From Candidatus Eiseniibacteriota bacterium (GTDB taxonomy: Bacteria > Joyebacterota > Joyebacteria > Joyebacterales > Joyebacteraceae), in contig JAUWCJ010000001.1 of assembly GCA_030609365.1 (NCBI GenBank), positions 1,266 to 65,265 on the forward strand: 64,000 bases of DNA. Reading direction: 5' to 3'. Position numbers and translations under genes: made by a program. Positions 2,955-30,739 of this stretch are shown here, piece after piece. Position 1 is the first letter of the stretch; every line of letters starts with the position of its first letter. The notes beneath the pieces were generated by a model that saw nothing but the letters and a program-made list of their open reading frames with translations, was not told the DNA's origin and did no database searches.

Positions 2955-2992
2955 CAGCAAACAGAAACGGCCGGGCTCAGAAGCCCGACCGT
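2955..2992 (-). terminator. Candidate intrinsic terminator for CDS 3068..3589
   Basis: Hairpin GGCCGGGCT-CAGA-AGCCCGACC at 2969-2990. On the plus strand it is preceded by an A-rich run (aaacagaaa), which is U-rich downstream on the minus strand. Confidence 0.3.
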
Positions 2993-3067
2993 GAGATGGC
3001 ATCGTGTATTCAGCTGCGCTACTTATGAAACACCCGCCGCTTCTGAGAAGCGACTGAGGAGGATCCT

Positions 3068-3589: not shown

Positions 3590-3620
3590 GTGCCTCCCCG
3601 AAGTCCGGTCCTGCTTCGAG

Positions 3621-4175: not shown

Positions 4176-4178
4176 TAT

Positions 4179-14289: not shown

Positions 14290-16065
14290 CTAAGGCTCCT
14301 CGTGATGTCGGCTGTCGTCCAGACCCAGAAGAGCTGCGACGTCGCCCGCGGTACTGGCGGCGACGGCTTCGTTCGCCAGTGAGACGGCGGTGTCCAGATC
14401 GACGTCCCTGATCGCCTTCTTCGTCGCGGGCAGTCGGCCGTTGGAGACGCTGAACTCCCGCAGCCCGAGACCGATCAGAAGCGGAACGTAGGCGGGCGTG
14501 CCGGCCATCTCCCCGCACAGGGAGATGGGCTTCCCCGCCGAGGCGGCGCCTTCGACGGATCGCGCAATGAGGGCGAGCACAGAGGGGTCGTGTGGCCTGT
14601 AGAGACGGCTCACGTACGAGCTGCCGCGATCGACGGCGAGCGTATACTGCACGAGATCGTTCGTCCCTATGCTCAGGAAGTCACACTCCGCGGCGAGGCG
14701 GTCGGCAACCATCGCCGCCGACGGTATCTCTATCATTGCGCCGGCCTCGATGTTCTCGTCGAAAGCGACGCCTTCACTCCTGAGCTGGCCCTTCGCCTCG
14801 TCCAGCCTCCCGAGCGCCTGACGCAGCTCGTCCACCGAGGAGATCATGGGCACCAGAATACGAACGGCTCCATGGGCGCTCGCGCGGAGGATCGCCCTGA
14901 ACTGAGCCAGCAGGAGGTCCGGGCGATCGAGAAGCACGCGCGTCGAACGGTAGCCGAGGTTGGGGTTGTGCTCGCGAAACGGGTTCTCGGAACCGACGAA
15001 CTTGTCGCCTCCGACGTCCAGCGTTCTGATGGTGACCGGCTTGCCGGCCATGGGCTCGACCGCTTCTCGGTACGCCGCGAACTGTGCGTCCTCGTCCAGG
15101 AACAGATTCGCCGACATGAATATCATCTCACTGCGAAGAAGCCCGATGCCGTCGGCGCCCAGCTCCGCGGCCTGCCTGGCTTCATCGCCCGACGCGATGT
15201 TGCTCATGAGCGCTATCTCTGTCCCATCGCGCGTGACCGACGGAAGCTCCAGGACCGAAGCCAGCTCGTGGCGCTCCCGGATCTCCTCCTCGCGCATGCT
15301 CTCGTAGCGCGCCCGGGTGTCGGTGGACGGATCGACGATGGCCACGCCCAGGGCGCCGTCCAGTGCGATGAGCTCTCCCGTGCGGACCCTCTCGAGGATT
15401 CCTGCGACCCCGGCCATCGCAGGGACGCCGAGCGAGCGAGCCAGGATCGCCGCGTGCGACTCCGTGCCCCCGAGCTCGGTGACGAACCCCAGTATCCGTC
15501 CTCGGTCCATCGAGGCGGTGTCGCTCGCCCTGAGTTCCCTCGCGACCAAGATCATGGGCTGCGACAGCGGGCAGTGCGCCCAGACTCCGAGCATCCGCTC
15601 GATGACACGCTGTCCGATGTCGCTGACGTCGTAGGCCCGGTCGCGCAGATAGCGGTCATCCGCGGACGAGAGGACCGCCGTCACGCGCTTCATCTCCTCG
15701 GCGACGGCCGCCTCGGCGTTGACGTGGCTGTTTCTGATGATGTCGAGAATCGCCTCGAGTATCGACGGGTCCTCGAGGATCATCGAGTGCGCCAGGAATA
15801 CGTCACCTTCGCCCTGACCCAGTTGCTTAGACACGTGCCTGGCGTCGCGAAGGAGCTCCGTCTTAACCAGCGCGACGGCGTCGCGAAGCCGCGCGATCTC
15901 GCCGTCTACCTCGGAAGCGTCGATCGTGCGCACCTCGACCTCGTCCAGGATGTCACCGTAGACGAATGCCGGGGCCATCGCGATGCCGGGTGAGACCGGT
16001 GTGCCGTGCAGAACGACACGGTCCTCGGTGTCAGGCGTTTCACTGCCGCGTGAGTTCACTGACAT
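14290..16065 (-). CDS. ptsI: Phosphoenolpyruvate--protein phosphotransferase (PTS enzyme I)
   Basis: PEP-utilizing enzyme phospho-His region (..GGTESHAAILARSLGVPAMAG..) and a C-terminal PEP-binding TIM-barrel with ISLCGEMAG. No HPr or EII genes are present in the window. Confidence 0.85.
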   Translation of the reverse strand: MSVNSRGSETPDTEDRVVLHGTPVSPGIAMAPAFVYGDILDEVEVRTIDASEVDGEIARLRDAVALVKTELLRDARHVSKQLGQGEGDVFLAHSMILEDPSILEAILDIIRNSHVNAEAAVAEEMKRVTAVLSSADDRYLRDRAYDVSDIGQRVIERMLGVWAHCPLSQPMILVARELRASDTASMDRGRILGFVTELGGTESHAAILARSLGVPAMAGVAGILERVRTGELIALDGALGVAIVDPSTDTRARYESMREEEIRERHELASVLELPSVTRDGTEIALMSNIASGDEARQAAELGADGIGLLRSEMIFMSANLFLDEDAQFAAYREAVEPMAGKPVTIRTLDVGGDKFVGSENPFREHNPNLGYRSTRVLLDRPDLLLAQFRAILRASAHGAVRILVPMISSVDELRQALGRLDEAKGQLRSEGVAFDENIEAGAMIEIPSAAMVADRLAAECDFLSIGTNDLVQYTLAVDRGSSYVSRLYRPHDPSVLALIARSVEGAASAGKPISLCGEMAGTPAYVPLLIGLGLREFSVSNGRLPATKKAIRDVDLDTAVSLANEAVAASTAGDVAALLGLDDSRHHEEP

Positions 16066-16110: not shown

Positions 16111-17490
16111 CTAAGACCGGACCTTCTTCAACGCCTGGAGGGCCGCCATCGCGACCGGGTCCCAAACGGGTGAGAAGGGCGGAGCATAGCTCATGTCGAT
16201 GTCCGCGAGGTCTCTGACCGTCATCTTCGCGTGGAGCGCCGCAGCGATCGTGTCGATCCGCTTCCCCGCTCCTTCTCTTCCGATGATCTGACCGCCGAGC
16301 AGTCGCCCGCCATCGGGCTCGAAGACCAGTTTGACGTGAACCGCCCCGGCGCCCGGATATGCGTGCGCCTTCGAGAGGGACCTGATCCGGATGGAAGTCG
16401 CCGCCAGCCCCTCTTTGGATGCCGCGCGTTCAGTCAGACCCGTCTGCGCAGCCTCGAGATCGAACACCTTCGCGATGTTCGTCCCTGCGACGCCCCCGAA
16501 CCGGGCGCTGCCCCCGACCGCGTTCTCGCCGGCGAGCTTGCCCTGCTTGTTCGCAGTGGTGCCCAGCGGGATCCACACCGGCCGGCCCGTAACCACGTGA
16601 TTCGCCTCGGAGCAGTCCCCGGCGGCAAGAACGGAAGGCTCGCTCGTCACTTGGCGCGCATCCACCTTGATGGCCCCAGTGGCGCCCAGCTCCACGCCGG
16701 CCGCTGTGGCCAGCCCCACGGCGGGGCGGACGCCGACGGACACCAGCGCGAGGTCGGCCTCGAGCCTCTGCCCTCCTGCCAGCACATAGCCCAGCCCTGA
16801 GGAGCCGTCTCGCGGCTCGAACCCCTCGACGCTCGTCTCCTTCCGCACGCTCACTCCCTTGGCAAGAAGCTCGCGCTCCACCAGCTCGCTCATGTCGGGA
16901 TCGAACGTCGGCAGAACCGTCGGAAGCAGCTCGATGACGGTGACCGTGATGCCCCGTGACGCGAGCGCCTCGGCCATCTCAAGACCGATGTAGCCCGCTC
17001 CCACGATCGTCGCTTTCTTGATGCCGCCCGATTCCACCCGCTCGCGCAGACGCTCTCCGTCCGCCAGCGTACGAAGCGTGGCCACTCCGGGGATGTCGAT
17101 CCCGGGGAGCGGCGGCTTCACGGCCACGGCGCCGGTCCCGAGCACCAGGGCATCGAACGAGAGACTGGCGTCCCCCCCGTCGGGTCCCTGGAACGTCACT
17201 GTCCGGCCGACCGGGTCCAGAGCCGCCACGGGGGTATTGAGCCGGATGTCCATGTGCCGCTCGTTCCGGAAGAAGTCCGCTTCGTACTGGACCAATTCCT
17301 CCCTGCTCGGGATCAGACCGGACACGAAGTACGGGAGGAGGCACGCGCTGTACGACACGTCTCCGCCCTTTTCGAACACGACGATCTCGACGTCCGGTCG
17401 GAGACGTCTCGCACGGCTCGCAGCGCTCATACCGGCCGCGACGCCTCCAACCACGACCAGTCGTCCTCCCTCTCGCATCGCGGGTGGCAT
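16111..17490 (-). CDS. FAD-dependent pyridine nucleotide-disulfide oxidoreductase (CoA-disulfide reductase / NADH oxidase family)
   Basis: N-terminal FAD fold VVVGGVAAGMSAASRARRL, a single redox Cys in SYSACLLPYF (the CoADR/Nox SxxxC(G)LPY signature), a second GxGxxG (IVGAGYIGLE), and a C-terminal dimerisation domain. Confidence 0.8.
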   Translation of the reverse strand: MPPAMREGGRLVVVGGVAAGMSAASRARRLRPDVEIVVFEKGGDVSYSACLLPYFVSGLIPSREELVQYEADFFRNERHMDIRLNTPVAALDPVGRTVTFQGPDGGDASLSFDALVLGTGAVAVKPPLPGIDIPGVATLRTLADGERLRERVESGGIKKATIVGAGYIGLEMAEALASRGITVTVIELLPTVLPTFDPDMSELVERELLAKGVSVRKETSVEGFEPRDGSSGLGYVLAGGQRLEADLALVSVGVRPAVGLATAAGVELGATGAIKVDARQVTSEPSVLAAGDCSEANHVVTGRPVWIPLGTTANKQGKLAGENAVGGSARFGGVAGTNIAKVFDLEAAQTGLTERAASKEGLAATSIRIRSLSKAHAYPGAGAVHVKLVFEPDGGRLLGGQIIGREGAGKRIDTIAAALHAKMTVRDLADIDMSYAPPFSPVWDPVAMAALQALKKVRS

Positions 17491-17648: not shown

Positions 17649-17897
17649 CTACTCGTCGCACTCCTGGCACGCCTTGATCGCGGCGCGCAGACGCTCGTGG
17701 ACGTCCTTGGGAAGGACCTTCCCGCAGGTCTGTCTGTGCAGGATGATCGTGCGCTCGAACGTGTGGACGAGCGCCTGTGCCTTCTCGCAGTGCTCGATGT
17801 GCAGCATGAACTCGACCTCGAGTTCGGCATCAAGCTCACCGTCGAAGTGTTCCGAGAGGCACTGAACGAACTTCTTGCAGTCGTCTACGTGTGACAC
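17649..17897 (-). CDS. Small cytoplasmic Cys/His-rich anti-sigma factor (zf-HC2/RsrA-like, divergent)
   Basis: The 82-aa protein has no TM segment. It carries C7, C13, the FDGELD motif (as in YLDGEL), HIEHC and a C-terminal CQEC. It resembles ZAS anti-sigma factors, but the second Cys of H-x3-C-x2-C is Ala. Confidence 0.5.
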   Translation of the reverse strand: MSHVDDCKKFVQCLSEHFDGELDAELEVEFMLHIEHCEKAQALVHTFERTIILHRQTCGKVLPKDVHERLRAAIKACQECDE

Positions 17898-18020
17898 CGG
17901 CCTGCGGTCCTTTCGCTCGACTGCCCGTCGCCGTCGCCGACCGGCCCTGATGACCGGCCGGCAACAGCGTGGATATCCCTGTGGAGCTTACTGCGAATCT
18001 CTCTTGTGAGAGGACCCGGA

Positions 18021-19964
18021 CTACTGAACGGGTTCGTCCTCCGAACGTCCGCCCATGTGCTTCGCCAGGAACCTCTCCGCGTCACCATAGAACCTAAGCC
18101 TGTTCTCAGGCTTGGCAAACCCGTGCCCCTCATCCTCGAAGACGATGTACCCGACCTCGAGGCCGTTGGCCTTCATAGCCTCGACGAACTGGTCGGACTC
18201 CGCCTGCACGACGCGCACGTCGTTGGCGCCCTGCGCGACGAGCATGGGGATCTTCACCTGGTCGACGCTGAACAGAGGTGAACGTGATCTCAGGAATTCC
18301 TCTTCCGTCCTCGGGTCGCCCACCCGCTTGTACATCATCTCGATCATCGTGCTCCAGTAGGGCGGGATCGTTTCGAGGAAGCTGATGAGATTGCTGGGCC
18401 CCATCATCGGAATGGCACAGCAGAAGAGGTCGGGCGTGAAGGTCGCGCCGGCGAGCGCCGCGTAACCACCGTACGATGCGCCGTAGATGGCGATGCGCTC
18501 GGGATCGGCGATGCCCTTGTCGATGGCCCAGTTGACGGCGTCGGTGAGGTCGTTCTGCATCGTGCCGCCCCACTCTTTGTCACCGGCGTTCAGGAACTCC
18601 TTGCCGTAGCCCGTCGAGCCGCGGAAGTTCACCTGCAGGCAGACGTAGCCACGGTTCGCCAGCCACTGCGCCTCGGGGTTGTAACCCCAGTTATCTCTGG
18701 CCCAGGGACCGCCGTGAACGTTCAGGACCAGCGGTAAATTCCGCCGCGCCACGCCCGAAGGATAGGTGATGTAGCCGTGGATGGTGAGTCCGTCGCGCGA
18801 CGTGAACGAGATGGGCTCGATGGGCACCAAGTTGTAGCCCTCGAGGTCCGGCTTGTGCACGAAGAGGAACGTGCCCTCCTTCGTGTTGCGGTCGTAGCTG
18901 TAGAACGGCACCGGGCCGTCGTCCTTGCTGAAAGCCACGATCCAGGTGTCGTAGTCGTTGTCGTAGCTCGTGATACTGAAGTCGCCGCTGTCCAGCTTCT
19001 CTATCGCCGCGAAGTCGTCCGCGACGGCGTCGTCCAGGATCTTCCACTCGTTCTTGGCCTTCGTGAACGCCACGGCCTCTATCTCGTAGGTGTCCGGATT
19101 GACCATGACGTCGCTGACGTCGTAGATCGGGTCCTCGGCCATGATCGTAAGCTCGCGCGTCTCGAGGTCCAGCCTGACGAGACGGCCCGTGTTGGCGTTT
19201 CGCGAGTCGATCATGTACAGCGATCCGCCGTCCTTGGTGAAGGCGAGCGGACTGCTGACCATGTTGTCCTCGTCGCCCCACGTGATGAGCGTCTCCCACG
19301 TAGCGGCGGCGGGATCCTCACGATAGAGCAGCTTGGTGTCGCCCGTCGGTCCCATAGCGAGCGCCCCACGAACGTCGAGGTTGAAGTCCGTGATCCATCC
19401 GAGGATGTTCCCGGGGTTCCTGGCCACGAGTGTGAGTTCGCCCGTGTCCAGCTCGAGACGGTAGACGTCGTGAAGGCGAGGGTCCTGTTGGTTCATCGAG
19501 ATGACCATCGTGTTCGGGTGGTGCTTGCTGTAGTCCAGGACTCGGACCTGCACGCCCTCGAAGGGCGTGAGCTCGCTGACCTCCCCGCTCTCAATGTTCA
19601 CGGAGTAGAGAAGCCAGTTCTCGTCGCCGCCGGCGTCCTGTAGATAGATGATGTGGTTGCTGTCCTGAGCCCAGAAGAAACGGAACACACCGCGGTTGTC
19701 GTCGTGCGTCACCGCGCGGTCGTCGTCCTCGCCTATGGTCTTGACCCAGACGTTGAGCACGTCATCGACGGGAGCGATGTATGACATCAGCTCGCCGCTC
19801 GGAGATATCCTCGCGCGGGCTCTCTCGGGGTTGCCAAAGAGGATGGTGCGGGGAATCAACTCCACATCACCGCCGCCACCGCACGACGTCAACAAGACGG
19901 CGGCGCCGACGAGAATCACGGCGGCAAGAACAACTGCCACGGGTCCTACGTGCTTCTTGTTCAT
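18021..19964 (-). CDS. S9 family serine peptidase (prolyl oligopeptidase/dipeptidyl-peptidase type), secreted
   Basis: Signal peptide MNKKHVGPVAVVLAAVILVGAAVLLTSC, an N-terminal beta-propeller region and a C-terminal alpha/beta hydrolase with nucleophile elbow GASYGGY. Asp and His regions follow (..VAQGANDVRV.., ..EDEGHGF..). Confidence 0.85.
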   Translation of the reverse strand: MNKKHVGPVAVVLAAVILVGAAVLLTSCGGGGDVELIPRTILFGNPERARARISPSGELMSYIAPVDDVLNVWVKTIGEDDDRAVTHDDNRGVFRFFWAQDSNHIIYLQDAGGDENWLLYSVNIESGEVSELTPFEGVQVRVLDYSKHHPNTMVISMNQQDPRLHDVYRLELDTGELTLVARNPGNILGWITDFNLDVRGALAMGPTGDTKLLYREDPAAATWETLITWGDEDNMVSSPLAFTKDGGSLYMIDSRNANTGRLVRLDLETRELTIMAEDPIYDVSDVMVNPDTYEIEAVAFTKAKNEWKILDDAVADDFAAIEKLDSGDFSITSYDNDYDTWIVAFSKDDGPVPFYSYDRNTKEGTFLFVHKPDLEGYNLVPIEPISFTSRDGLTIHGYITYPSGVARRNLPLVLNVHGGPWARDNWGYNPEAQWLANRGYVCLQVNFRGSTGYGKEFLNAGDKEWGGTMQNDLTDAVNWAIDKGIADPERIAIYGASYGGYAALAGATFTPDLFCCAIPMMGPSNLISFLETIPPYWSTMIEMMYKRVGDPRTEEEFLRSRSPLFSVDQVKIPMLVAQGANDVRVVQAESDQFVEAMKANGLEVGYIVFEDEGHGFAKPENRLRFYGDAERFLAKHMGGRSEDEPVQ

Positions 19965-20007
19965 CTTCCCTCCCTGCAGCTAAACATGGGTTCTAAGGAC
20001 CGACCGC

Positions 20008-20694
20008 TCAGGACCTGCCGTTCATCCGAGCGGCGACCTCATCCGCTTCAGTTCCGTGGTCGAAGTAGCTCGACAGTCTTTGTCTCAAGAACAGACGCGC
20101 CCGGTGAAGCCTCGACTTCACCGCGGGGATGGAGAGCCCCAGCGCGTCAGCGGTGTCGTTCGTCGAGAGACCGTGCACGTCTCGCATGAGGAAGACGATG
20201 CGGTTGTCCGGGTCGAGCTCGTTGACGTGCCGCACGAGCACGTCGGAGAGCTCGTTGTTCATCACATCAGCGCGGGGATCGTTCGTCCAGTCGGCCAGGT
20301 CCCTGCTGACGTCGCCCTCTTCCAGCTCTACGGGCTGATCCAGGGAAACGGTGTCCAGCTTCTTCTTGCGGAGCCTCATCAGGCTTTCGTTGTAGGCGAT
20401 CCGGTACAGCCACGTTGAGAAACGCGCCTCCTCGCGGAACCCCGGCAGTGCCTTGAACGCCTTGATGAATACTTCCTGAAGGCAGTCCTCGGCGTCCTCC
20501 TGGTTCCCGAGCATCTTGAGACACAGCCCGTAGATCTTGGCCTCGTTCCGCTCCACGAGTTCCCCGAACGCGTCGGCGTCTCCCGCCTTGGCGCTCCGGA
20601 CCAGTTCGTTGTCGGAAGGAAGCTTCTGGGCCGTCATGTCGGCTCCCGAAGACGTGACCGAGTAAAGGAACGTCCGGCTACCACCGGCGGTCAT
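20008..20694 (-). CDS. RNA polymerase ECF-type sigma-70 factor
   Basis: Region 2 (..FGELVERNEAKIYGLCLKMLGN..DCLQEVFIKAFKALPGF..FSTWLYRIAYNESL..) and region 4 (..VHGLSTNDTADALGLSIPAVKSRLHRARLFLR..). Confidence 0.85.
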   Translation of the reverse strand: MTAGGSRTFLYSVTSSGADMTAQKLPSDNELVRSAKAGDADAFGELVERNEAKIYGLCLKMLGNQEDAEDCLQEVFIKAFKALPGFREEARFSTWLYRIAYNESLMRLRKKKLDTVSLDQPVELEEGDVSRDLADWTNDPRADVMNNELSDVLVRHVNELDPDNRIVFLMRDVHGLSTNDTADALGLSIPAVKSRLHRARLFLRQRLSSYFDHGTEADEVAARMNGRS

Positions 20695-20703
20695 GGCCGG
20701 TGG

Positions 20704-21183
20704 TCAGTACCAGTCTCCGCCGATCGCGCGCGTTCCGAACTCCTCGCGCGCGATCTGGGCAACGAGTCGGGGCACCGCGTCTGCAACGACGTCCGACTCG
20801 ATCGTGTCTCCCGGGCTCTCGCCGAGCTCTATCGCGTAGATGGATATCTCCAGCGGGATACCGATATCCTTTGCGCCCTCCAGGTGGACGGTCGCGCTGT
20901 ACTCCGTGTCGCCACGACCCTGGGCTCGAGGAACGAGATCCAGATCGGACAGCCCCAGCTTCCTCAGTTCCCCGACGTCGCCTTCGCCGTTCCTGATGCA
21001 GTCCACGACCACGACCTTGTGATAGCCGGCCGCGATCTCGAAGAGGTCCATCGCCGTGTCGTACGCCTCAACGATATCGACATCCGGATCCGCGAGCATG
21101 GTGTACAGACCGCGCGCCACCTCCAGCCCGACGCGCTGGCCCACGAACCCCTGACTACCAAGCCCCAGGATGAGAGTTCTCAT
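20704..21183 (-). CDS. Hydrogenase maturation protease homolog (HybD/HycI/FrhD family, peptidase A31-like)
   Basis: It aligns by eye with E. coli HybD: MRTLILGLGSQGFVGQRVGLEVARGL vs MRILVLGVGNILLTDEAIGVRIVEAL. The conserved Asp (VVVVDCI) and His (ATVHLEG) are present, but the first metal ligand Glu is Gln. There is no hydrogenase large subunit in the window. Confidence 0.55.
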   Translation of the reverse strand: MRTLILGLGSQGFVGQRVGLEVARGLYTMLADPDVDIVEAYDTAMDLFEIAAGYHKVVVVDCIRNGEGDVGELRKLGLSDLDLVPRAQGRGDTEYSATVHLEGAKDIGIPLEISIYAIELGESPGDTIESDVVADAVPRLVAQIAREEFGTRAIGGDWY

Positions 21184-21232
21184 CGTCCTCCGCCCCTACC
21201 TTGTGACACGCCGGCCTACTACCGCCGGTTGC

Positions 21233-22861
21233 CTACGCCAGAAGTTCTATCTTTCTCTCTACCGTCGCGGCGCGTCTGTACTCCGGCAGCAACATCGGCG
21301 AGACATTCGTCGGCTCGACGCCCGCCGCTTTCAGAGCCGCATGGTAGTTCTTCAGATGATCGAGACCGAGGCCACCAGCGGTCTTGATGCCCGCCGCCTG
21401 GGCCGCGGCAGCCACTCCGGCCCGCCGCCCAAAGACTACCACGTCCAGGAGCGAGTTGCCCATGAGCCGGTTAGTGCCGTGTATGCCGCCCGCGACCTCG
21501 CCGGCCGCATAGAGGCCGGGAACGGGCGTTTCGCACCGCTCGTTGATCTCGAGGCCACCGTTCTGGTAATGCTGCGTCGGGTAGATGAGAATCGGGTGCT
21601 TCGCCATGTCGATCCCGAACCGCTCGTACTGGCGGTACATCGCCGGGACGCGCGCCTTGACGGCGCCCTCGCCGAGCTTCTTCTCAATGACGACGGTGTC
21701 CAGCCACACGGCGGGCTGACCGGACGGCGTGACAACGCCCTTCTTTCGTCCCAGGCACTCGCGAATGACGGCCGCCGCCTCGACGTCTCTGGTCTCCAGC
21801 TCGTAGACGAACCGGTCGCCTTCCGTGTTCGTGATCTGACCACCGATGCTCCGGACCTTCTCGGTCACAAGAAGACCGAGGATCTGCTCGGGATAGGCCG
21901 CGCCCGTCGGGTGGTACTGGATCGTGTCGAGGTACTGGAGGGGTGCGCCCACCCGATAGCCAAGCACGAGCCCGTCGGCCGTGGCGCCGTAGTGATTCGA
22001 GGTCGGAAAGCCCATGACGTGAAGCCGCCCACCACCGCCGGTAGCCAGGATCGTTGTCTTCGCCCTGACGATGAGATACTCCTGCGTCTCCATATTGTAG
22101 AGGACCGCGCCCGTCACTCTGTCGCCGTCGGTCAGAAGCTCGTAGACGGCGGCGAACTCCACCAGCGGGACGTCACGGTTGAGCATCTCGTCCTTGAGTG
22201 TCTTCATTATCTCACCACCCGTGAAGTCGCGCGCGGCGTGCATCCTCTTTCTGGAGGTGCCTCCGCCGTGGATGGTGATCATGGTGCCGTCGCTCTCCTT
22301 GTCGAACATCACGCCGAGCTTCTCGAGCCAGGCGAGCGCTTCGGGAGCGTCCATGACGAGCGCCTTCGCCAACTCGGGGTCGTTCTTGTAGTGCCCGCCG
22401 CCCAGAACGTCGAGGTAGTGGATCGCGGGGGAATCGTTGGGCTTGTCGGCACCCTGGATGCCGCCCTGCGCCATGACGGTGTTGGAATCGCCCAGGCGCA
22501 GCTTAGTGACCACAAGCACGTTGGCGCCCTGCTCCTGCGCCACGAGCGCCGCGGCCGCACCGGCGCCGCCGCCACCCACGATCAGAACGTCCACGTCGAA
22601 GTCGACCTTCGAGAGATCGAACCCGTCCGGATCCAGCCCGCTGTAGGCCTCGAAGACCCTGGCGTACTCGGTGGGCGTGCGCTCGCCCTTTGACGGACCG
22701 ACTCTCAGCTCACTGAAGACCTCATCCTTGTAGTCCGGATGGAAGCCCTCGAGGAGTTCCTGCTTGGCGTCAGCGGAGAGAAGCGGGAACTCCTCGTCCA
22801 GCCTCCGCTCGCGCGTCGCTTCGACACGCTTGATCAGCTCGAGCAATTCCGGTGTGTACAA
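21233..22861 (-). CDS. Succinate dehydrogenase/fumarate reductase flavoprotein-subunit-like (SdhA/FrdA/TfrA family)
   Basis: N-terminal FAD fold VDVLIVGGGGAGAAAALVAQEQGANV, FAD-binding/capping domain motifs (..HYGATADG.., ..RLMGNSLLD..), ~540 aa. It is adjacent to an Fe-S subunit gene. Confidence 0.8.
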   Translation of the reverse strand: MYTPELLELIKRVEATRERRLDEEFPLLSADAKQELLEGFHPDYKDEVFSELRVGPSKGERTPTEYARVFEAYSGLDPDGFDLSKVDFDVDVLIVGGGGAGAAAALVAQEQGANVLVVTKLRLGDSNTVMAQGGIQGADKPNDSPAIHYLDVLGGGHYKNDPELAKALVMDAPEALAWLEKLGVMFDKESDGTMITIHGGGTSRKRMHAARDFTGGEIMKTLKDEMLNRDVPLVEFAAVYELLTDGDRVTGAVLYNMETQEYLIVRAKTTILATGGGGRLHVMGFPTSNHYGATADGLVLGYRVGAPLQYLDTIQYHPTGAAYPEQILGLLVTEKVRSIGGQITNTEGDRFVYELETRDVEAAAVIRECLGRKKGVVTPSGQPAVWLDTVVIEKKLGEGAVKARVPAMYRQYERFGIDMAKHPILIYPTQHYQNGGLEINERCETPVPGLYAAGEVAGGIHGTNRLMGNSLLDVVVFGRRAGVAAAAQAAGIKTAGGLGLDHLKNYHAALKAAGVEPTNVSPMLLPEYRRAATVERKIELLA

Positions 22862-22871: not shown

Positions 22872-23555
22872 CTAGCCTCTCGGCTCCATGTCTCGGTTGT
22901 TGTAGAGCTCGGCCAGGTCGGCCTGCTTCATCTTCGTCAACTTGTCCATCTCATCGTTGAACGTGCCGTCCGCCATCTCCTTGAGCCGGTCCTTCAGGTG
23001 CGGCGCCTCGGCGGCTACGTGACGCGAGTAGAGCCTGCGGCACAGAAGCGCGACCTGATACTGCACGATCTCCGCGGGACATCTCGAAGCGCAGAGCCCG
23101 CAGAGGATGCAGTCGAAGGAGAGGTCGGCGGCCTTTGCGATGTCGCCCCTGAGCGCGGCCTGGATGTACTCCATGACCTCGATGTCCTGAGGACAGGCCT
23201 TCGTGCACGTGTTGCAGGAGAGACAGCGGAAGACCTCCGGGTAGAGCGAGAGTATCGCATCGGCGGTCGGTTTCAGGTCCTCGATGTCGTAGGTCGCCTT
23301 GTTGCCCGGGAAGAACGGGATCTCGGCGAGGTACATCTCGTCCTGCACGACCTCCTGACAGGCGAGGCCGACCTTGAGACGGTAGTCGTCCTTTGTTCGG
23401 TAGACGGTTCCGCAGGCGCCGCAGAACGCTCCCCTGCACCCGCAGCCCCTCACGAACCGGTAGCCCGCGTACTCCATGGCCTTCATGATGGTGAGGTCGC
23501 CGGGGACCTCGTAAGGCTTGCCCATCACGTAGATGGTCACCATCTGTTCTGCCAT
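22872..23555 (-). CDS. Succinate dehydrogenase/fumarate reductase iron-sulfur-subunit-like (2Fe-2S + two 4Fe-4S motifs)
   Basis: C-x4-C-x2-C (CRGAFCGAC) 2Fe-2S motif plus two CxxCxxCxxxCP motifs (CLSCNTCTKACP, CILCGLCASRCP). Confidence 0.75.
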   Translation of the reverse strand: MAEQMVTIYVMGKPYEVPGDLTIMKAMEYAGYRFVRGCGCRGAFCGACGTVYRTKDDYRLKVGLACQEVVQDEMYLAEIPFFPGNKATYDIEDLKPTADAILSLYPEVFRCLSCNTCTKACPQDIEVMEYIQAALRGDIAKAADLSFDCILCGLCASRCPAEIVQYQVALLCRRLYSRHVAAEAPHLKDRLKEMADGTFNDEMDKLTKMKQADLAELYNNRDMEPRG

Positions 23556-23641: not shown

Positions 23642-24067
23642 CTAGGCGACCTTCTCCTGTTCCTTCAAGCCGAGCTCCAGAGACCCGAGCTCCTTGATCG
23701 TATCGACGAAATCGGACATCACGTGGACCAGCTTCTCTCCCTCGGCAGCGGAGATCCAGTCGAGCTGCAGACGCTCAGGATCTATGCCCACGTCCTCAAG
23801 CGTGCGCTTGAGGAACTGAACGCGGCGCATGGTCTTGTGGTTCCCCTCCTCGTAGTGACAGTCGCCGGGATGGCAGCCGCCGACGAGCACGCCGTCGGCA
23901 CCTTCCCGAAACGCCCAGAGGACGTGCTGAGGGTCGATGCGCCCCGTGCAGTTGACTCGCACGACCACGCCGTTCGGCGGGTACTGTTTCCGCGAGGTGC
24001 CGGCGAGGTCCGCGCCGGCGTACGTGCACCACTTGCAGAAGAAACAGACGATTCTCGGTTCGAACAT
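23642..24067 (-). CDS. mvhD: Methyl-viologen-reducing hydrogenase delta-subunit-like protein (MvhD)
   Basis: Motifs CFFCKWCTYAGAD, ..VNCTGRIDP.. and GADGVLVGGCHPGDCHYEEGN match the MvhD family. Its start lies 1 nt after the HdrA stop. Confidence 0.8.
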   Translation of the reverse strand: MFEPRIVCFFCKWCTYAGADLAGTSRKQYPPNGVVVRVNCTGRIDPQHVLWAFREGADGVLVGGCHPGDCHYEEGNHKTMRRVQFLKRTLEDVGIDPERLQLDWISAAEGEKLVHVMSDFVDTIKELGSLELGLKEQEKVA

Positions 24068-24068: not shown

Positions 24069-26033
24069 TCAGACCTCCAGAGCGGCCGAGACCATTTTGT
24101 AGAGTTGCTCGTCCGTCAGGTTCTTCTGCTGAGCAGAGCCGGACGGGCAGGCGGCGATACACGCTCCGCAGCCCTCGCAGATCGCTTCCTTGATGCGTGC
24201 GACTTTCTTCTCGTCATCGAATTCCGCCGCGTCGTATGGACAGACCGAGATGCACACACGGCACCCGGCGCACGTGTCCTCGTCGATCACGGCGATAACC
24301 GGCTCGCGGTGGTACTCGGTCTCCGCGAAGAGAGCGGCGACCTTGCTCGCGGCGGCCGACGCCTGCGCGACGGACTCCGGAATGTCCTTGGGCCCCTGGG
24401 CCGAGCCCGCGAGATAGAACCCCGGTGTGAGGCTCTCTACGGGCCGAAGCTTCGGGTGCGCCTCGGACAGGAAGCCCCACTCGTCCGTGTGGATCTTGAG
24501 CATGCTGGCGAGCTTCGCGGCGGCCTCGTTCGGAACGGTGGCCAGGCCGAGCACGGCCATGTCAGCCGCGATCTCGATCTTCCTGCCGGAGAGTGTGTCG
24601 ACTCCCCAAACCATGACACGCCCGTCCTCCTCGAAGATCTTCGAGACCTTGCCGCGGATGTAGAGGACGTCGTCCTCCTCGGCCGCGCGGGTGTAGAATT
24701 CCTCGTAGCCCTTTCCGCCCGTCCGGACGTCCATGTAGAAGACGTACGCCTGGCCGTCGTGGACCTTGTGCCTATAGAGCATGGCGTGCTTCGTGAGATA
24801 CATGCAGCAGATCTTGGAGCAGTACGGCAGGTGGTTTTCGGTGTCCCTCGAGCCGCAGCAGGTCAGGAACACGACCTCGGAAGGTACTTCGCCGTCGGAG
24901 GGTCGCAGGACTTCTCCTCCGGTCGGGCCGGACGCCGAGAGCATCCTCTCGAACTGGAGGCTTGTGATGACGTCGGCGTACTTCCCGCCACCGTACTCGC
25001 CCAGGTTCTCAATCGGGTAGAGATCGTAGCCTGTGGCAACAATGATGGCCCCGACCTCCTCCTCAATGAACTCGTCCTTCTGCTCGTAGTCGATGCAGTC
25101 GAGAGGACAGACCTTCGCGCAGATACCGCATTTCCCGTCCTTGAGGAAGTAGGTGCAGTGCTCGGCATCGAGGACCGGTTTGTTCGGCACCGCCTGCGGG
25201 AAGGGAGTGTAGATGGCCTTGCGGTCGGCCAGCTGTTCGTCGAACTCGGACGGCGTCTTGGCCGGGCACTTCTCCACGCACAGACCGCAACCGGTGCAGA
25301 CGTCGCGATTGACGTAGGCGGCCTTCTTCCTGATCTTGACCTTGAAGTTGCCGACGTAGCCGCTGACGTCGTCAACCTCCGAGTAGGTCATGAGCCTAAT
25401 CTTCGGGTGCTGCGCGACCTCGACCATCTTGGGGGTCATGATGCACTGCGAACAGTCGAGCGTCGGGAAGGTCTCGGAGAGCTGCGCCATGTGGCCGCCG
25501 ATGGACGCCGACTTCTCGACGAGAATGACCTCGTGCCCCGCGTTGGCAACGTCGAGCGCCGCCTGGATCCCCGCAATGCCGCCACCCACCACCAGAGCCC
25601 GGGGGGTCATGGGTACTGATATGGGCTCGAGCGCTTCGTCGAGCCGGGCCTTCTCTATCATCACCTTGATGGTTCTGATGGCCTTGCTTGTCGCCGCTTC
25701 CTTGTCGCCCTGATGCACCCAGCTGCACTGCTCGCGGATGTTGGCGATCTCGACCTGATACTGGTTCATCCCCGCCGTCATCCCCGCCCGCCTGAACGTC
25801 GCCTCGTGAAGGGTCGGCGAACACGCCGCCACGATCACGCCGGTCAGGTTGTGCTTCTTGATGGCATCCTTCACCAGGTTCTGACCGGGATCGGAGCACA
25901 TGTAGGTGTAGTCGGTGGAGTAGGCCACTCCCGGATAGTCGGCCAGCTCCTCCGCCACACGCTTGACGTCCACCACGCCGGCGATGTTGGTCCCGCAGTG
26001 GCAAACGAAGACCCCAATGCGTTCTTCCATCAC
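24069..26033 (-). CDS. hdrA: Heterodisulfide reductase subunit A (HdrA, FAD/Fe-S)
   Basis: N-terminal GVFVCHCGTNIAG signature, a FAD-binding GxGxxG (VVGGGIAGIQAAL), multiple CxxCxxCxxxCP ferredoxin motifs, 654 aa. Confidence 0.85.
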   Translation of the reverse strand: MMEERIGVFVCHCGTNIAGVVDVKRVAEELADYPGVAYSTDYTYMCSDPGQNLVKDAIKKHNLTGVIVAACSPTLHEATFRRAGMTAGMNQYQVEIANIREQCSWVHQGDKEAATSKAIRTIKVMIEKARLDEALEPISVPMTPRALVVGGGIAGIQAALDVANAGHEVILVEKSASIGGHMAQLSETFPTLDCSQCIMTPKMVEVAQHPKIRLMTYSEVDDVSGYVGNFKVKIRKKAAYVNRDVCTGCGLCVEKCPAKTPSEFDEQLADRKAIYTPFPQAVPNKPVLDAEHCTYFLKDGKCGICAKVCPLDCIDYEQKDEFIEEEVGAIIVATGYDLYPIENLGEYGGGKYADVITSLQFERMLSASGPTGGEVLRPSDGEVPSEVVFLTCCGSRDTENHLPYCSKICCMYLTKHAMLYRHKVHDGQAYVFYMDVRTGGKGYEEFYTRAAEEDDVLYIRGKVSKIFEEDGRVMVWGVDTLSGRKIEIAADMAVLGLATVPNEAAAKLASMLKIHTDEWGFLSEAHPKLRPVESLTPGFYLAGSAQGPKDIPESVAQASAAASKVAALFAETEYHREPVIAVIDEDTCAGCRVCISVCPYDAAEFDDEKKVARIKEAICEGCGACIAACPSGSAQQKNLTDEQLYKMVSAALEV

Positions 26034-26039: not shown

Positions 26040-26966
26040 CTAAAACAGACTCTTCTCCGCCAGAACGGGTAGCGGGTCCACGGAGTTGTCAGTGAAGTCC
26101 AGGTGCTTCTTGTCAATGCCCAGTGCAATCCCCAGAAGCTGTGTGAAGTAGACCACCGGGACACGACTGAACCCCTTGACGCGCTCGGCCATCTTCTCCT
26201 GATGCCTGTCGAGATTATAGCGGCAGAGCGGGCAGGTCGTGACGATGATGTCGGCGTTGCGTTTGAGCGCGGAGACGACGACGTTCTGTGAGCATGACAC
26301 TGCCAGCTCCTCGTCGTTGACGACCTGGAACCCCCCGCAGCACTCTGTCTTCATCGGGAAATCGACCGCTTCGCATCCGAGCGTCTCGAGGAATTCCTCG
26401 AAGATCGTGGGCTGCTCGGGGTCGTCGAACTTCATCTCGTTCTTGGGGCGAAGCAACATGCACCCGTAGTAGGGCGCCACCTTGAGACCTTCGAGCTTCT
26501 TCGTCACGGCGGAGGCGACTTTGTCGTAGCCGACCACATCGCGCAGCATCTCGATGTAGTGGAGAACCTCCACCTGCCCCTCGTAGTCCTCGTGCGTGTA
26601 GCTCTCTACCTTCTTGCGCGCCTCGGTGTCCGCGCGGAGAAACAGGTTAGTCTTGTCCCTCTTGTCCTCGTCGTCGCGCATCACGTTGTTGCAGCGCTTG
26701 AGAACGTTGTAGCAGAAGGAGCACAGCGTGACGACCTTGTCGCCTAGCCGGGACGCGTAGGACAGGTTCCTTACCCCTGCCAGGACGTCCATCACGCTGT
26801 CGGTCACGAGCGGGTACACGGCGCCGCAGCAGGTCCAGATGGCGAGTTCCTCGAGCTCGACGCCCAGGGCCAAAGCACATTCTCTTGCGGATGTGTCGAA
26901 GTCTCGTGCCCTCTCGTGAAGCGTACAGCCCGGGTAGTACGGGATCTTCATCTCTTTCTCCGGCAC
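26040..26966 (-). CDS. hdrB: Heterodisulfide reductase subunit B-like (two CCG domains)
   Basis: Two Cys-rich CCG-domain signatures: YYPGCTL..WTCCGAVY and YYGCMLLRP..TECCGGF. Confidence 0.8.
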   Translation of the reverse strand: MPEKEMKIPYYPGCTLHERARDFDTSARECALALGVELEELAIWTCCGAVYPLVTDSVMDVLAGVRNLSYASRLGDKVVTLCSFCYNVLKRCNNVMRDDEDKRDKTNLFLRADTEARKKVESYTHEDYEGQVEVLHYIEMLRDVVGYDKVASAVTKKLEGLKVAPYYGCMLLRPKNEMKFDDPEQPTIFEEFLETLGCEAVDFPMKTECCGGFQVVNDEELAVSCSQNVVVSALKRNADIIVTTCPLCRYNLDRHQEKMAERVKGFSRVPVVYFTQLLGIALGIDKKHLDFTDNSVDPLPVLAEKSLF

Positions 26967-26969: not shown

Positions 26970-27413
26970 CTATCCGTTCAGCTTCCTCAATGCCCCGACC
27001 ACACCCATCTGCGGCGCATCCGACATCATCACCTTCGTCAACCCGTCCGCGTCGACCTTCGGTGTCGCGAGCCGGATCCGCAGGACGATGGCCCTCAGCG
27101 CGTCACAGATGCTCGAGAACTCGACGCCCTTCGGGCACCTAGACGCGCATTGCAGACACGACGCGCACGTCCATATGGTCTTCGAACTCAGAACCTCGTC
27201 AATCTGGCCGAGCTGAAGAAGCCTGATGACCTCACTCGGGATTATGTCCATCTCTTCGACGACGGGACACCCGGCCGAGCACCTGCCGCACTGGTAGCAA
27301 GCAAGGATGCTCTGCCCGGAGAGCGTTTCCACCCGGTCGATGGCCTCGTCCTTGACCATGCCCGCGGTGAGCCTGAGTCTCATCGATACCTCCAGGGTAC
27401 AGCTATAGACCAA
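26970..27413 (-). CDS. hdrC: Heterodisulfide reductase subunit C-like (2x4Fe-4S)
   Basis: CYQCGRCSAGCP and CASCLQCASRCP motifs, ~147 aa. The true start may be the internal Met (MRLRL..). The gap to hdrB is 3 nt. Confidence 0.75.
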   Translation of the reverse strand: MVYSCTLEVSMRLRLTAGMVKDEAIDRVETLSGQSILACYQCGRCSAGCPVVEEMDIIPSEVIRLLQLGQIDEVLSSKTIWTCASCLQCASRCPKGVEFSSICDALRAIVLRIRLATPKVDADGLTKVMMSDAPQMGVVGALRKLNG

Positions 27414-27680
27414 TTCGACCGGCCCCGGCCGCTGCTCACGCGATGGGGTCGTTCAAAGCGCCAGCTGCCTGTCAGAGCCGCGTCAGCGCGGTCGGTCGGT
27501 ACGAAAACCAGTCACCGCAACGTCAGCGGTCGGCGCGGCGGTGACATGTCGGTTGGATACTCTACTATGGAGCGCGCCACGAGTCAACCGCTTTCGGCCG
27601 CAAAACCCCACGAAAACGGCACATTTCTGCCCGAACAGCCGTGGACCACGCTCGTCCGCACGGCAGCCCGGAGGCGGGCA

Positions 27681-27709
27681 TCGACAGCACGATGGCCGCG
27701 CTGTATAAT
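27681..27709 (+). promoter_or_regulatory. Sigma-70-like promoter TCGACA-17-TATAAT for the beta-helix secreted protein gene
   Basis: -35 TCGACA at 27681-27686, a 17-nt spacer and a perfect -10 TATAAT at 27704-27709. RBS AAGGAGAGGAGG is at 27717-27728 and the ATG at 27737. Confidence 0.5.
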
Positions 27710-27736
27710 TTTAGCAAGGAGAGGAGGCGTGTCACG

Positions 27737-28798
27737 ATGCGAATGAGACTGCAGTGTTGTGCATTGCTTCTGCTTGCCACCCTGCCGGCCGCCGTCTGTG
27801 CCGGAGTCATCGTCGTCGACCCCGTGGGTGGCGGCGACTACGACAACATACCCGAGGCCATGTTCCACGGTACGGCTGACGACACGGTGCTCGTGTTGCC
27901 GGGCTTCTACGAGGTGGAGACGGGCATTCCTTACCCGTGGCCCATCCTCCTGACGGCCGACAGCCCCGCGCTCGTCAGCCAGGGAGGTGCTGCGCTGACG
28001 CTCATTTTCGGCAACGGTCTGATGCCGGCCCTCGACGTACGGGACGATACGTTCGGCGCGCGGGCCTTCATAGCAGGATTCACGTTCCAGTGGCTGGAGA
28101 CGCCGCTGGACTGGGGCTATCCGACGAGCGGGACCGTCTACTTCACGGACAACATCGTGAAGGGGTGCGAGACGGGAGTGGACGTCCGCATGGGTGAAGG
28201 GCTGGTCGCCAGAAACCTTATCGAGGGACCGGGCACCTACGGGATCCAGACCGGGCACTTCGAGGGCGTGATAGAGGACAACGAGGTGCACGGGTTCAAG
28301 GACGGCATCACGGGCGCGGACGGGAACACGGTGATACAGCGAAACCACATCCACGACAACGGGATCAGCGGTGTGGCGGGGTTCAACGACTGCATCGCCA
28401 TCGACAATGTCGTTGAGGACAACGGCTGGGCCGGGTTCAGCATCTCGTTCGACGCCCACCTGACGGGCAACGTCATCCGTGGCAACGGCACGGGCATCAA
28501 CTTCTGGGGTGGACCGCACAACGGGTTCCTGAACGGGAACGACATCTACGACAACGCGGAGTTCGCCGTGCACTCATACTGCGAAGAGCACATCCCCGTC
28601 CCGCCCGACTTCGACGCCACCATGAACTGGTGGGGTACAACCGACCCGGACGAAATCGCGGCGAGCATCGACGACTGCCACGACAGCATGTGGTCGGCCG
28701 TATGTTTCGTCGTCGAGCCGTGGTGCACGGCGCCCGGGTGCGACCCCACGCCCGCCGAGCTGTCGAGCTGGGGCGCGATCAAGGCTCTGTATAGATGA
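27737..28798 (+). CDS. Secreted right-handed parallel beta-helix repeat protein ending in SWGAIKALYR tag
   Basis: The start at MRMRLQCCALLLLATLPAAVCAG (signal peptide) is preferred to the longer ORF start at 27641. Repeated N-x-I-x-x-N / GxxG beta-helix turns run from NIVKGCETGVDV to GNDIYDNAEF, with an NWWGTTDPDEIAASIDD motif. The extreme C-terminus is ELSSWGAIKALYR. Confidence 0.6.
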   Translation: MRMRLQCCALLLLATLPAAVCAGVIVVDPVGGGDYDNIPEAMFHGTADDTVLVLPGFYEVETGIPYPWPILLTADSPALVSQGGAALTLIFGNGLMPALDVRDDTFGARAFIAGFTFQWLETPLDWGYPTSGTVYFTDNIVKGCETGVDVRMGEGLVARNLIEGPGTYGIQTGHFEGVIEDNEVHGFKDGITGADGNTVIQRNHIHDNGISGVAGFNDCIAIDNVVEDNGWAGFSISFDAHLTGNVIRGNGTGINFWGGPHNGFLNGNDIYDNAEFAVHSYCEEHIPVPPDFDATMNWWGTTDPDEIAASIDDCHDSMWSAVCFVVEPWCTAPGCDPTPAELSSWGAIKALYR

Positions 28799-29784
28799 TG
28801 GCAGAAGAACGGATCAGAAATGGATCGGCCGAGCCGGGGCTGAAACCCCGGCTCGGCGTCAGTACCTGTCTCCTGGGCGAGAACGTCCGCTACGACGGCA
28901 CGGAGAAGAGCGACCCGATCCTGCTTGGGGCGTTCGGAGACGCCGTTGAATGGGTGCCCATCTGCCCCGAGGTCGAGTGCGGCATGACCGTGCCCAGAGA
29001 CCCGATGCACCTGGCCGACGACCCGGACTCTCCGAGGCTCGTGACGACGGCCACGGGCGAGGACCAGACGGGGCGCATGCAGACGTGGATGCGGTCCCGT
29101 CTCGACGAGCTCGCCGGCTGTGACCCCTGGGGATTCGTGCTGAAGAGCAGATCACCCAGCTGCGGGCGGAGCGCTGTGCCGGTGCTGGACTCGACGGGCG
29201 CGCCGGCGGGCGAGGCCGCCGGGCTCTTCGCCGCCGCAGTCGCCGTGCGCTTCCCGCTGTTGCCGGTCGCGGACGAGAGCAGTCTGCGTGACGACTCGAT
29301 GTGGGACAACTTCATCGAGCGTCTCTTCTGCCTGAAGAGATACCGCGACTCCATGCAGCCGGAGGGGAGCCGCGAATCGCTGGTCGCGTTCCACGCCGCG
29401 CATGAGCTTCAGCTCATGGCGCACGACCGGGACGTTCTCCATGAGATGGAGGAACTGGTGGCGCGCTCGAGGAAGCTCCCACTGGATGAACTCTCTGCCA
29501 GATACGAGGAGCTCCTGACGACGGCGATGGAGTTCGTGGCCACCCCGGCGCAGAGTGCCGACGCTTTCCTGCACGCCCTGGGCCTCCTCGAGCGCTACAT
29601 GAACCCCGGCGAGAGGCAGGATGCGCTCGAGCTCATTGAGGAGCACCGCGGCGGGCGCGTCCCCTTGACCGTTCCCACGAAGCTCCTCGGGCGCTACATC
29701 CAGAAGTACCGCGTGGAGCACCTCGCCACTCAGTCCTGTTTCGCCTCGCACCCCAACGAACTGAAACTGCGAAATCGCTCCTGA
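28795..29784 (+). CDS. DUF523 (TudS-like) + DUF1722 fusion protein (YbgA family)
   Basis: N-terminal LGVSTCLLGENVRYDG..ILLGAFGDAVEWVPICPEVECGM matches DUF523 (Cys-rich 4Fe-4S site). The C-terminal helical half (..LVAFHAAHELQLMAH..) matches DUF1722. Confidence 0.65.
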   Translation: MMAEERIRNGSAEPGLKPRLGVSTCLLGENVRYDGTEKSDPILLGAFGDAVEWVPICPEVECGMTVPRDPMHLADDPDSPRLVTTATGEDQTGRMQTWMRSRLDELAGCDPWGFVLKSRSPSCGRSAVPVLDSTGAPAGEAAGLFAAAVAVRFPLLPVADESSLRDDSMWDNFIERLFCLKRYRDSMQPEGSRESLVAFHAAHELQLMAHDRDVLHEMEELVARSRKLPLDELSARYEELLTTAMEFVATPAQSADAFLHALGLLERYMNPGERQDALELIEEHRGGRVPLTVPTKLLGRYIQKYRVEHLATQSCFASHPNELKLRNRS

Positions 29785-29864: not shown

Positions 29865-30650
29865 ATGGGCGAACTCGAGGTCAGGGAACTCAGGTCCGGC
29901 GAGGAATCACTATGGCTCGGGTCTGATGCGGAAGGCGGGCCCGGTGCGGACGGCGAATCCGAGAAGCTCACCAAGTTCCGCCGCTTGTTCGAGGAGCGGT
30001 CCTCGCAGGACCCCCGCTCGTTTCTCGTGGCACTCGACGGGCCACGCGCCGCCGGGCGACTGAAGGGACTCTTCCTCAGCGACAAGCTCTACTTCGTCCA
30101 GGAACTCCACTGCGCGGAGGGTCTCCCCTGCAGCGTGGTCGAGGACGCGCTTGCGAGCTTCCTCGGTGACTCGTTCTCGCGCGACGGCATCGGGATCCTG
30201 AGCTGGGACCGGACGAAGAGCGCGGAGACCAACGCCGCGCTCGAGCGCGCGGGGCTTCTGATCGAGAAGAAGAAGGTGTTCGTTGCTCGCGGCCTGAAGG
30301 GTGACCTCCCCCGGCCCGGGACGCACTTCGCGTTCCGGACGCTTGCAGAGGCCGGGAAGGACGAGTTCCTGCCCGTGATGACGGAGGCCGCGGCTACGGG
30401 CGGGCCCTGCACGCCTCGGGGCTTTCGATGCTCGCTGAGCGCGGCGTCACACGGTACGTGGGCTCCACCGACACGCGGAACGGCCCGATGCTCAAGGTCT
30501 TCGAAGCGAACGGATGCCCGCAGACCGGCATACAGCGCTTCTACAAGCCCCCCGCCCGGTAGCGGCGGCGCACCGGACCGATTCTCGTTCGCGGTAGCAG
30601 CGGCAGTGTGCCCGATTCTCCTTTTGACTGCAGGCAAGCTCTCCCTATAG
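29865..30650 (+). CDS. GNAT-like acetyltransferase candidate, probably frameshifted near 30400-30430
   Basis: The first ~180 aa read as a protein (..ALERAGLLIEKKKVFVARGL..). After ~30420 the called frame becomes low-complexity. The +2 frame gives a clean GNAT-like C-terminus ..LAERGVTRYVGSTDTRNGPMLKVFEANGCPQTGIQRFYKPPAR* ending at 30562. Confidence 0.35.
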   Translation: MGELEVRELRSGEESLWLGSDAEGGPGADGESEKLTKFRRLFEERSSQDPRSFLVALDGPRAAGRLKGLFLSDKLYFVQELHCAEGLPCSVVEDALASFLGDSFSRDGIGILSWDRTKSAETNAALERAGLLIEKKKVFVARGLKGDLPRPGTHFAFRTLAEAGKDEFLPVMTEAAATGGPCTPRGFRCSLSAASHGTWAPPTRGTARCSRSSKRTDARRPAYSASTSPPPGSGGAPDRFSFAVAAAVCPILLLTAGKLSL

Positions 30651-30702
30651 AGTCATCTCTACGTATAGTCATCTCCATCATGGAGTCGTCTTCACTGACG
30701 AC
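30624..30702 (+). promoter_or_regulatory. Promoter-like TTGACT-16-TATAGA plus operator-like repeats upstream of the XDH-family operon
   Basis: -35 TTGACT at 30624-30629 and -10 TATAGA at 30646-30651. Direct repeats TATAGAGTCATCTC (30646-30659) and TATAGTCATCTCC (30664-30676). Palindrome TCCATCATGGA (30674-30684). Inverted repeat GTCGTC-N6-GACGAC (30685-30702). The region is AT-rich for this genome. Confidence 0.4.
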
Positions 30703-30739
30703 ATCCTGTCCTCCGGAGAACCGCTCCCGACGAGGTGAA

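Follow-up and report, generated by a model that had tools for sequence, protein, structure and literature searches.

Maturation endopeptidases of the HybD, HycI and HoxW type (MEROPS A31, PF01750, TIGR00072) carry out a nickel-dependent C-terminal cleavage of the [NiFe]-hydrogenase large subunit. Nickel in the large subunit is a reported substrate-recognition element (PMC2670836, PMC5299533), and Glu16, Asp62 and His93 are the proposed nickel ligands of HybD (PMC2670836). In a bacterial group 3c hdrCBA-mvhDGA cluster (locus L007, protease P0292) the protease gene is the last gene, and in the Calditrichaceae loci L035 and L036 it precedes hdrB. Another A31 member, FrhD, is likewise encoded within a redox-enzyme operon, that of the methanogen F420-reducing hydrogenase, where it adjoins its large subunit FrhA. 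Here we describe a divergent A31 homolog from a 64-kb stretch of Candidatus Eiseniibacteriota DNA (contig JAUWCJ010000001.1; 'the window' is this whole stretch). Its gene, referred to hereafter as hycI-like, is an intact open reading frame (ORF) on the minus strand (20704..21183) encoding 159 amino acids (aa), and it closes an hdr operon in which no hydrogenase gene is found. We suggest, with a probability of about 0.55, that the protein descends from an Mvh-type maturation protease, has lost nickel-dependent cleavage and is maintained as a non-catalytic protein.

This reading draws on evidence from the nickel site. The 118 members of the clade to which the protein belongs and 261 canonical relatives were aligned with MAFFT and again with hmmalign on a canonical-only hidden Markov model (HMM); both gave the same mapping. 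The canonical N-terminal motif G-x-G-N-x4-D-D-x-x-G is missing from the window protein, which has GLGSQGFVGQRVG there and reads GSQGFVGQ at the GN....DD position. Asn10, found in 97% of canonical relatives, is kept by 15% of the clade and is Ser10 in the window protein; Asp15 falls from 97% to 8% and is Gly15. Position 16 is Asp in 98% of canonical relatives and never in the clade, where Glu accounts for 61% and R, Q, G, P, N, A or V for the rest; the window protein has Gln16, in agreement with the Glu-to-Gln change noted in the first-pass annotation, and its close relatives carry Arg16. The same annotation held the Asp and His ligands to be conserved, which was correct for one of them only. 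The counterpart of HybD Asp62 (99% of canonical relatives) is the window's Asp61, invariant across the clade, while the His93 column (98% His in canonical relatives) retains His in 8% of the clade (9/118) and holds Gly91 in the window protein. His100, nine residues past that column, occupies a position that may be H, R, E, Q, D, M or P in the clade. All three ligands are present together in 254 of the 261 canonical relatives as against four of the 118 clade members, and the window protein is not one of the four.

An entropy scan singled out five positions, and no others, at which canonical proteins are conserved and the clade is variable, namely 10, 15, 16, 44 and 91. The Gly at position 44 may match the 'HOXBOX/DGG' region of PMC2670836. 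At the former ligand positions the clade has residues of widely differing chemistry (R, G, A, S, Q, P, V), which indicates relaxed constraint rather than conservative ligand replacement. The nickel-recognition residues Asn10, Asp15, Asp/Glu16 and His have thus been released from selection, with only Asp61 remaining. The clade has acquired invariant residues of its own (E72, G77, E94, Y95, S114, F149, G150 and W158), and several clade-specific residues are conserved in at least 98% of the 118 members.

Despite this erosion, the protein is a genuine peptidase A31 homolog, and the relationship to HybD and HycI proposed at the outset is not a spurious alignment. TIGR00072 scored 50.2 bits (cutoff 47.45), and PF01750 (HycI) scored 23.1 bits, barely over its threshold of 23.0. 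The canonical-only HMM, built from the 261 canonical relatives and a HybD sequence, matched at 108.6 bits (E 1e-35) with the critical region ungapped. Full-length homology emerged only from a profile search of a large library and the subfamily HMM: phmmer of the window protein against Protein Data Bank (PDB) sequences gave nothing meaningful, and the clade profile aligned with HycI and HybD over residues 1-73 only. When a profile of 26 orthologs was searched against 1.84 billion representative proteins, 1410 matches were obtained at E<=1e-3; the ortholog group formed one 50% cluster (249 bits), and full-length canonical proteases came next at about 114 bits. The protein thus resembles HybD, HycI and HoxW in length class, in full-length profile homology, in its central Asp and in a largely shared hydrophobic core that includes the GYDK..VVD and IYAIE motifs. 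It differs from them in lacking GN....DD and both the first acidic and the His ligand, in having a clade-specific C-terminal EEFG....GDWY tail, and in having no [NiFe] large-subunit gene beside it. The HybD-like alpha/beta core fold is retained. In an AlphaFold2 (AF2) model the core was confident and residues 80-106, the former His-helix region, were of low confidence or remodelled; a deeper alignment gave no better model, these residues falling below 50 in predicted local distance difference test score (pLDDT). The segment 84-109, which bears the His-carrying helix in canonical enzymes, is variable in the clade; one AF2 run rendered it as strands, and in the other its pLDDT was <50.

The hycI-like gene is under purifying selection. 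Pairwise Nei-Gojobori estimates for orthologs with unsaturated synonymous divergence (dS 0.29-0.65) gave ratios of nonsynonymous to synonymous change (dN/dS) of 0.11-0.19, compared with 0.04-0.15, mostly <=0.10, for the neighbouring hdrA, mvhD, FeS and flavoprotein genes. It evolves about 1.5-2 times faster than these operon neighbours. Identity to the window sequence was 48-94% for the hycI-like protein and 78-96% for HdrA, and in distant loci 48-59% and 78-87%, respectively. In the 26-sequence clade alignment 34 residues are invariant, and of the 120 protein clusters listed 114 have the full length. The reading frame appears intact in each in-clade locus that covers the gene, and no frameshift or premature stop was seen.

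The gene is the 3'-terminal member of its operon, confirming its placement in the first-pass annotation at the end of an hdr-mvhD-sdh string. The operon lies on the minus strand and begins with hdrC (26970..27413; two CxxCxxCxxxCP motifs, with orthologous calls in L003 and L004), followed by hdrB (26040..26966; CCG domains), hdrA (24069..26033; best NCBIfam match HdrA2, 816 bits) and mvhD (23642..24067; FlpD domain). Next come a gene for an iron-sulphur (FeS) protein with 2Fe-2S and 4Fe-4S dicluster domains (22872..23555) and one for a TfrA/SdhA-like flavin adenine dinucleotide (FAD) flavoprotein of 542 aa (21233..22861). The best NCBIfam match of the flavoprotein is TfrA, thiol:fumarate reductase subunit A, at 345 bits, which is under the cutoff; its N terminus is extended by about 88 aa, and no SdhA C-terminal domain can be recognised in it. 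The L007 cluster, ordered hdrC-hdrB-hdrA-mvhD-mvhG-mvhA-hycI, is exactly collinear with this operon, and its protease occupies the same last-gene slot. In group 3c clusters the two genes between mvhD and the protease gene are mvhG and mvhA, whereas in the window these positions are held by the FeS and flavoprotein genes, respectively, so that the operon is not an Mvh-Hdr cluster despite its hdrC, hdrB, hdrA and mvhD.

The orthologs form a single clade, and its matches are named Candidatus Eisenbacteria by NCBI. A 2026 paper places the source lineages JALGVN01, JALGVU01, WJLY01 and JAPEKQ01 in the phylum Joyebacterota, which was VGIX01 in an earlier GTDB release; the same VGIX01 lineage has been described as Effluviviacota. 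A scan of GTDB species genomes recovered 27 in-clade loci and two canonical Calditrichaceae loci. The locus nearest to that of the window is L009 (contig JALGZG010000122), with 91-98% aa identity across the cluster. The flavoprotein gene lies immediately upstream of the hycI-like gene in 32/32 in-clade loci with upstream DNA, and a flavoprotein-seeded scan added three in-clade loci with the same adjacency. Four members that retain Glu16, Asp61 and His (in the context TDHGVEY) already lie behind the flavoprotein gene (L122), indicating that the operon position is older than the loss of His. Literature searches turned up neither a degenerate A31 homolog nor, for Eisenbacteria or Joyebacterota, any account of this operon.

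As had been noted, the window itself offers no [NiFe] large subunit. No ORF in the 64 kb contains an RxCGxC or DPCxxC motif, and Pfam scans of the large ORFs detected no NiFeSe_Hases, Oxidored_q6 or Hyp families, so that small-subunit and hyp genes are missing as well. The few kb recovered past each window end contain no hydrogenase genes either. Large-subunit motifs were found in none of the in-clade loci scanned, while the large subunits of the control loci L005, L007, L035 and L036 were all detected. Within the scanned DNA there is consequently no nearby cognate large subunit with a C-terminal extension.

The closest canonical relatives with a named source come from Chloroflexota and Planctomycetota. 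Two close relatives sit at Hox-type hydrogenase clusters (L005, L006), and the proteases of L007, L035 and L036, which carry all canonical residues where the window homolog is degenerate, are also among the closest; against the clade profile the Mvh-linked L007 protease scored 107 bits and the best canonical protein 130 bits. These relatives bear on the suggestion that the protein is an FrhD-like non-proteolytic subunit, which found no support. The nearest canonical relatives found are bacterial and those examined are Hox- or Mvh-linked, the window contains no frh genes, and the only NCBIfam models matched at E<=0.01 were TIGR00072 and those for NiFeSe, HyaD/HybD and hupD, the presence of an FrhD model in that library being unconfirmed.

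The FeS/flavoprotein pair also occurs outside the clade. A metagenome scan seeded with the flavoprotein yielded at least 592 confirmed relatives, and three in-clade and 66 out-of-clade loci were inspected for HycI. A HycI-like gene followed the flavoprotein gene in 3/3 in-clade loci and in 1/66 out-of-clade loci (L038). The occurrence of the pair without HycI in the other 65 indicates that the protease homolog is not core to the module. In half of the 66 loci hdr or mvhD genes lie close by, and an Mvh hydrogenase is present in some as well. L081 is ordered hdrA-mvhD-mvhG-mvhA-hycI-hdrB-FeS-flavoprotein; in L045 and L047 the pair is next to hdrB-hdrA-mvhD and a [NiFe] large subunit. These arrangements indicate that an FeS/flavoprotein pair and an Mvh hydrogenase can replace or accompany each other as modules at an Hdr core, and the window operon documents their exchange in one slot. 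The papers searched contain no description of hdrCBA-mvhD coupled to the FeS protein and TfrA-like flavoprotein, so this Hdr-linked module, which possibly bifurcates electrons, may be uncharacterised. The exceptional locus, on a hydrothermal-vent metagenome contig, carries a canonical HycI gene (L038:9623-10108, with GN....DD, Asp and His) that overlaps the stop codon of the TfrA-like flavoprotein gene, in a cluster ordered hdrC-hdrB-mvhD-HEPN-FeS-flavoprotein, and no [NiFe] large subunit was found within 8 kb. It represents a second, separate lineage with HycI-flavoprotein adjacency. Its HycI was considered as the clade's nearest relative and rejected, scoring 79 bits against the clade profile as compared with 107-130 for other canonical proteases.

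The following course of events would fit these observations. The ancestor would have been a group-3 (Mvh/Hox-type) [NiFe]-hydrogenase maturation endopeptidase. The FeS/flavoprotein pair would then have come to hold the mvhG/mvhA slots, leaving the protease gene at the end of the hdr operon, and in one bacterial clade the gene would have become fixed as the last of hdrCBA-mvhD-FeS-flavoprotein. Once selection on the nickel-recognition residues ceased, the classic nickel-dependent C-terminal cleavage would have been lost. The maintenance of the fold and the appearance of new invariant residues suggest a non-catalytic binding or assembly role, that of a pseudo-protease, for which the candidate partner is the Hdr-MvhD-flavoprotein complex or an Mvh large-subunit precursor encoded elsewhere. 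HoxV and HupK, inactive [NiFe] large-subunit homologs proposed to be maturation scaffolds (review PMC12134894), offer a precedent from hydrogenase biogenesis for the retention of a catalytically dead homolog in a binding or scaffolding role, by analogy of principle only as they belong to a different family. More specifically, it is possible, though we hold it only tentatively, that the dead protease is a dedicated accessory or assembly subunit of a hydrogenase-independent and putatively electron-bifurcating HdrABC-MvhD-FeS-flavoprotein complex, or a holdase that needs no nickel and links the assembly of a separately encoded Mvh hydrogenase to the Hdr core. If either were true, the A31 fold would have a role other than proteolysis for the first time.

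Several points weigh against descent to a non-catalytic protein, and some of them would be expected if the protein were still an active protease, acting in trans on an Mvh-type hydrogenase encoded elsewhere through a remodelled site (Asp61, Glu94 and sometimes Glu16) and co-expressed with the Hdr core where Mvh docks. Table S4 of PMC13271369 lists K14126 (mvhA) and K14128 (mvhG) in all 30 Joyebacterota metagenome-assembled genomes (MAGs); in most of these mvhD occurs twice and hdrA at least twice, yet hdrB and hdrC only once each. Of the same table's genomes, 15 of 16 Eisenbacteria reference genomes have none of these mvh/hdr genes (PMC13271369). MAG173-P120 and Bin-501, the sources of L029 and L021 and both carriers of the orthologous operon, are each reported to have one mvhA and one mvhG elsewhere in the genome (PMC13271369), so that a trans substrate may exist. 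Group 3c, 3d and 4 hydrogenases are reported from the phylum in the Effluviviacota paper, and together these reports make it probable that the genome of the window organism encodes a hydrogenase elsewhere. Glu94 is invariant and lies three residues past the His column; it is also present in the four members that retain His, and with the invariant Asp61 it could make up a remodelled carboxylate site. The flavoprotein was considered as a marked substrate and rejected, its architecture and C-terminus being the same in the presence and absence of a HycI gene among six aligned sequences; these sequences show no HycI-linked difference that would point to it as a partner either, and the partner named above is putative. 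The HybD numbering, finally, was cross-checked only against the first 68 residues of PDB entry 1cfz and the 261 canonical relatives. An active trans protease would also accommodate the Mvh-linked proteases among the closest canonical relatives, the sub-lineage that keeps Glu16, Asp61 and His in the same operon context, and the canonical HycI that overlaps a flavoprotein stop codon in L038. We nevertheless consider it less likely than the non-catalytic reading, of which it is the main rival, because the nickel-site residues have eroded: within the clade there is free variation at positions 10, 15 and 16 and in the His column, which are 97-98% conserved in canonical relatives, the window protein has Gln16 and Gly91, close relatives have Arg16, and nickel is the reported recognition element, with Glu16, Asp62 and His93 as its proposed ligands (PMC2670836). 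Other lineages, moreover, keep a canonical protease beside mvhA (L007, L035, L036, L081). Were a protease lacking the His and Asp ligands active, the accepted nickel-recognition model would need revision.

The loss of mvhAG had also been raised as an explanation, with the gene as a relic, and as an account of origin this is the best fit, given the collinearity with the L007 cluster. That the gene is now a functionless and slowly decaying remnant of the displaced mvh genes is unlikely. Its faster evolution than that of its neighbours, its lower identity than HdrA, its eroded functional residues and the 65 other lineages in which the module does without HycI are all compatible with decay, but dN/dS of 0.11-0.19, intact reading frames, 34 invariant residues, clade-specific residues shared by at least 98% of members and Shine-Dalgarno (SD)-like motifs retained in most loci speak against it. 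Still less probable is a functional link to the downstream unit of extracytoplasmic function (ECF) sigma factor, S9 peptidase and zf-HC2 anti-sigma factor instead of the hdr operon. The sigma-factor gene is directly next in most loci, with an annotated spacer of 9 bp in the window. Against such a link, five loci (L004, L026, L028, L029 and L032) have about 1.4 kb between the two genes, filled in L004 by a malic-enzyme gene, and keep the flavoprotein adjacency; a hairpin lies past the hycI-like stop codon, with the annotated sigma ATG at 20694 in its loop; and no conserved ECF-type promoter is embedded in the 3' end of the hycI-like gene. The EEFG C-terminal motif was tried as such a promoter (GGAAC) for the sigma gene and rejected, since the DNA motif is lost at synonymous sites. 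A non-catalytic descendant of an Mvh-type protease is the reading we prefer, and the clade then constitutes a natural experiment in which the fold was kept and exactly the proposed nickel-recognition residues were freed; it can reveal which residues an A31 protease depends on and whether the fold can serve another purpose.

The expression signals of the gene are as follows. A GGAGG SD sequence (21187..21191, minus strand) lies 3 nt 5' of the ATG at 21183, within the 49-bp spacer that separates this ATG from the flavoprotein stop codon. SD-like motifs are present in 26/35 orthologous loci, where the corresponding spacers range from 11 to 175 bp. In the window spacer a sigma-70 promoter scan found none, and terminator-like matches occurred at chance level. 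The hairpin (20678..20707, minus strand; stem CCACCGGC / GCCGGTGG) overlaps and extends past the stop codon. The hdr-hycI-like transcript may end here. The L001 stem differs on both sides and still pairs (CCGCGGG / CCCGCGG), but a fold z-score of -1.77 and the want of a clear T-tract make it weak evidence. Plus-strand ORFs overlapping the gene gave zero matches in family scans and are shadow ORFs of 64% GC DNA. The JGI and NCBI pipelines call the orthologs 'hydrogenase maturation protease', a label that, together with mvhD, could inflate the H2 metabolism inferred from this operon.

Downstream of the hycI-like gene lie the genes for the ECF sigma factor, the S9 peptidase and the zf-HC2 anti-sigma factor, then a CoA-disulfide-reductase-like gene and ptsI. 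The sigma/peptidase/anti-sigma triad (17885-20694, minus strand; the peptidase is of the prolyl-oligopeptidase family) is conserved downstream across the clade, and it is unusual for a peptidase gene to stand between those for a sigma and an anti-sigma factor. As the annotated sigma ATG falls in the hairpin loop, the sigma gene probably starts about 57 nt downstream of it. The genes for the CoA-disulfide-reductase-like flavoprotein (16111-17490, minus strand) and PtsI (14290-16065, minus strand) are syntenic with the hdr operon in the distant loci L001, L003 and L004, which could hint at a thiol/disulfide substrate of the Hdr complex. Divergent from hdrC on the other side are genes for a NosD-like beta-helix protein and a 2-thiouracil desulfurase/DUF1722 protein (27641-29784, plus strand); the arrangement is kept in L001, only the NosD-like gene is present in L003, and in L004 the desulfurase gene is further upstream.

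Farther from the operon, a plus-strand region (30608-36110) contains, in this order, genes for a molybdenum-hydroxylase large subunit (Ald_Xan_dh_C, MoCoBD_1, MoCoBD_2), a 666-aa ORF without a Pfam match and a HEAT-repeat protein; coxL-like clusters are noted in the Joyebacterota paper as not having consumed CO. A second ECF sigma/zf-HC2 anti-sigma pair is located at 1600-4823 (minus strand), beside a DUF4384 protein and two ORFs without a family match. A gene at 40216-44835 (plus strand) encodes a 1539-aa protein, a probable surface or secreted protease, in which a C25 (gingipain-like) peptidase domain is joined to CARDB, FG-GAP/beta-propeller, beta-helix and C-terminal FlgD_ig domains.
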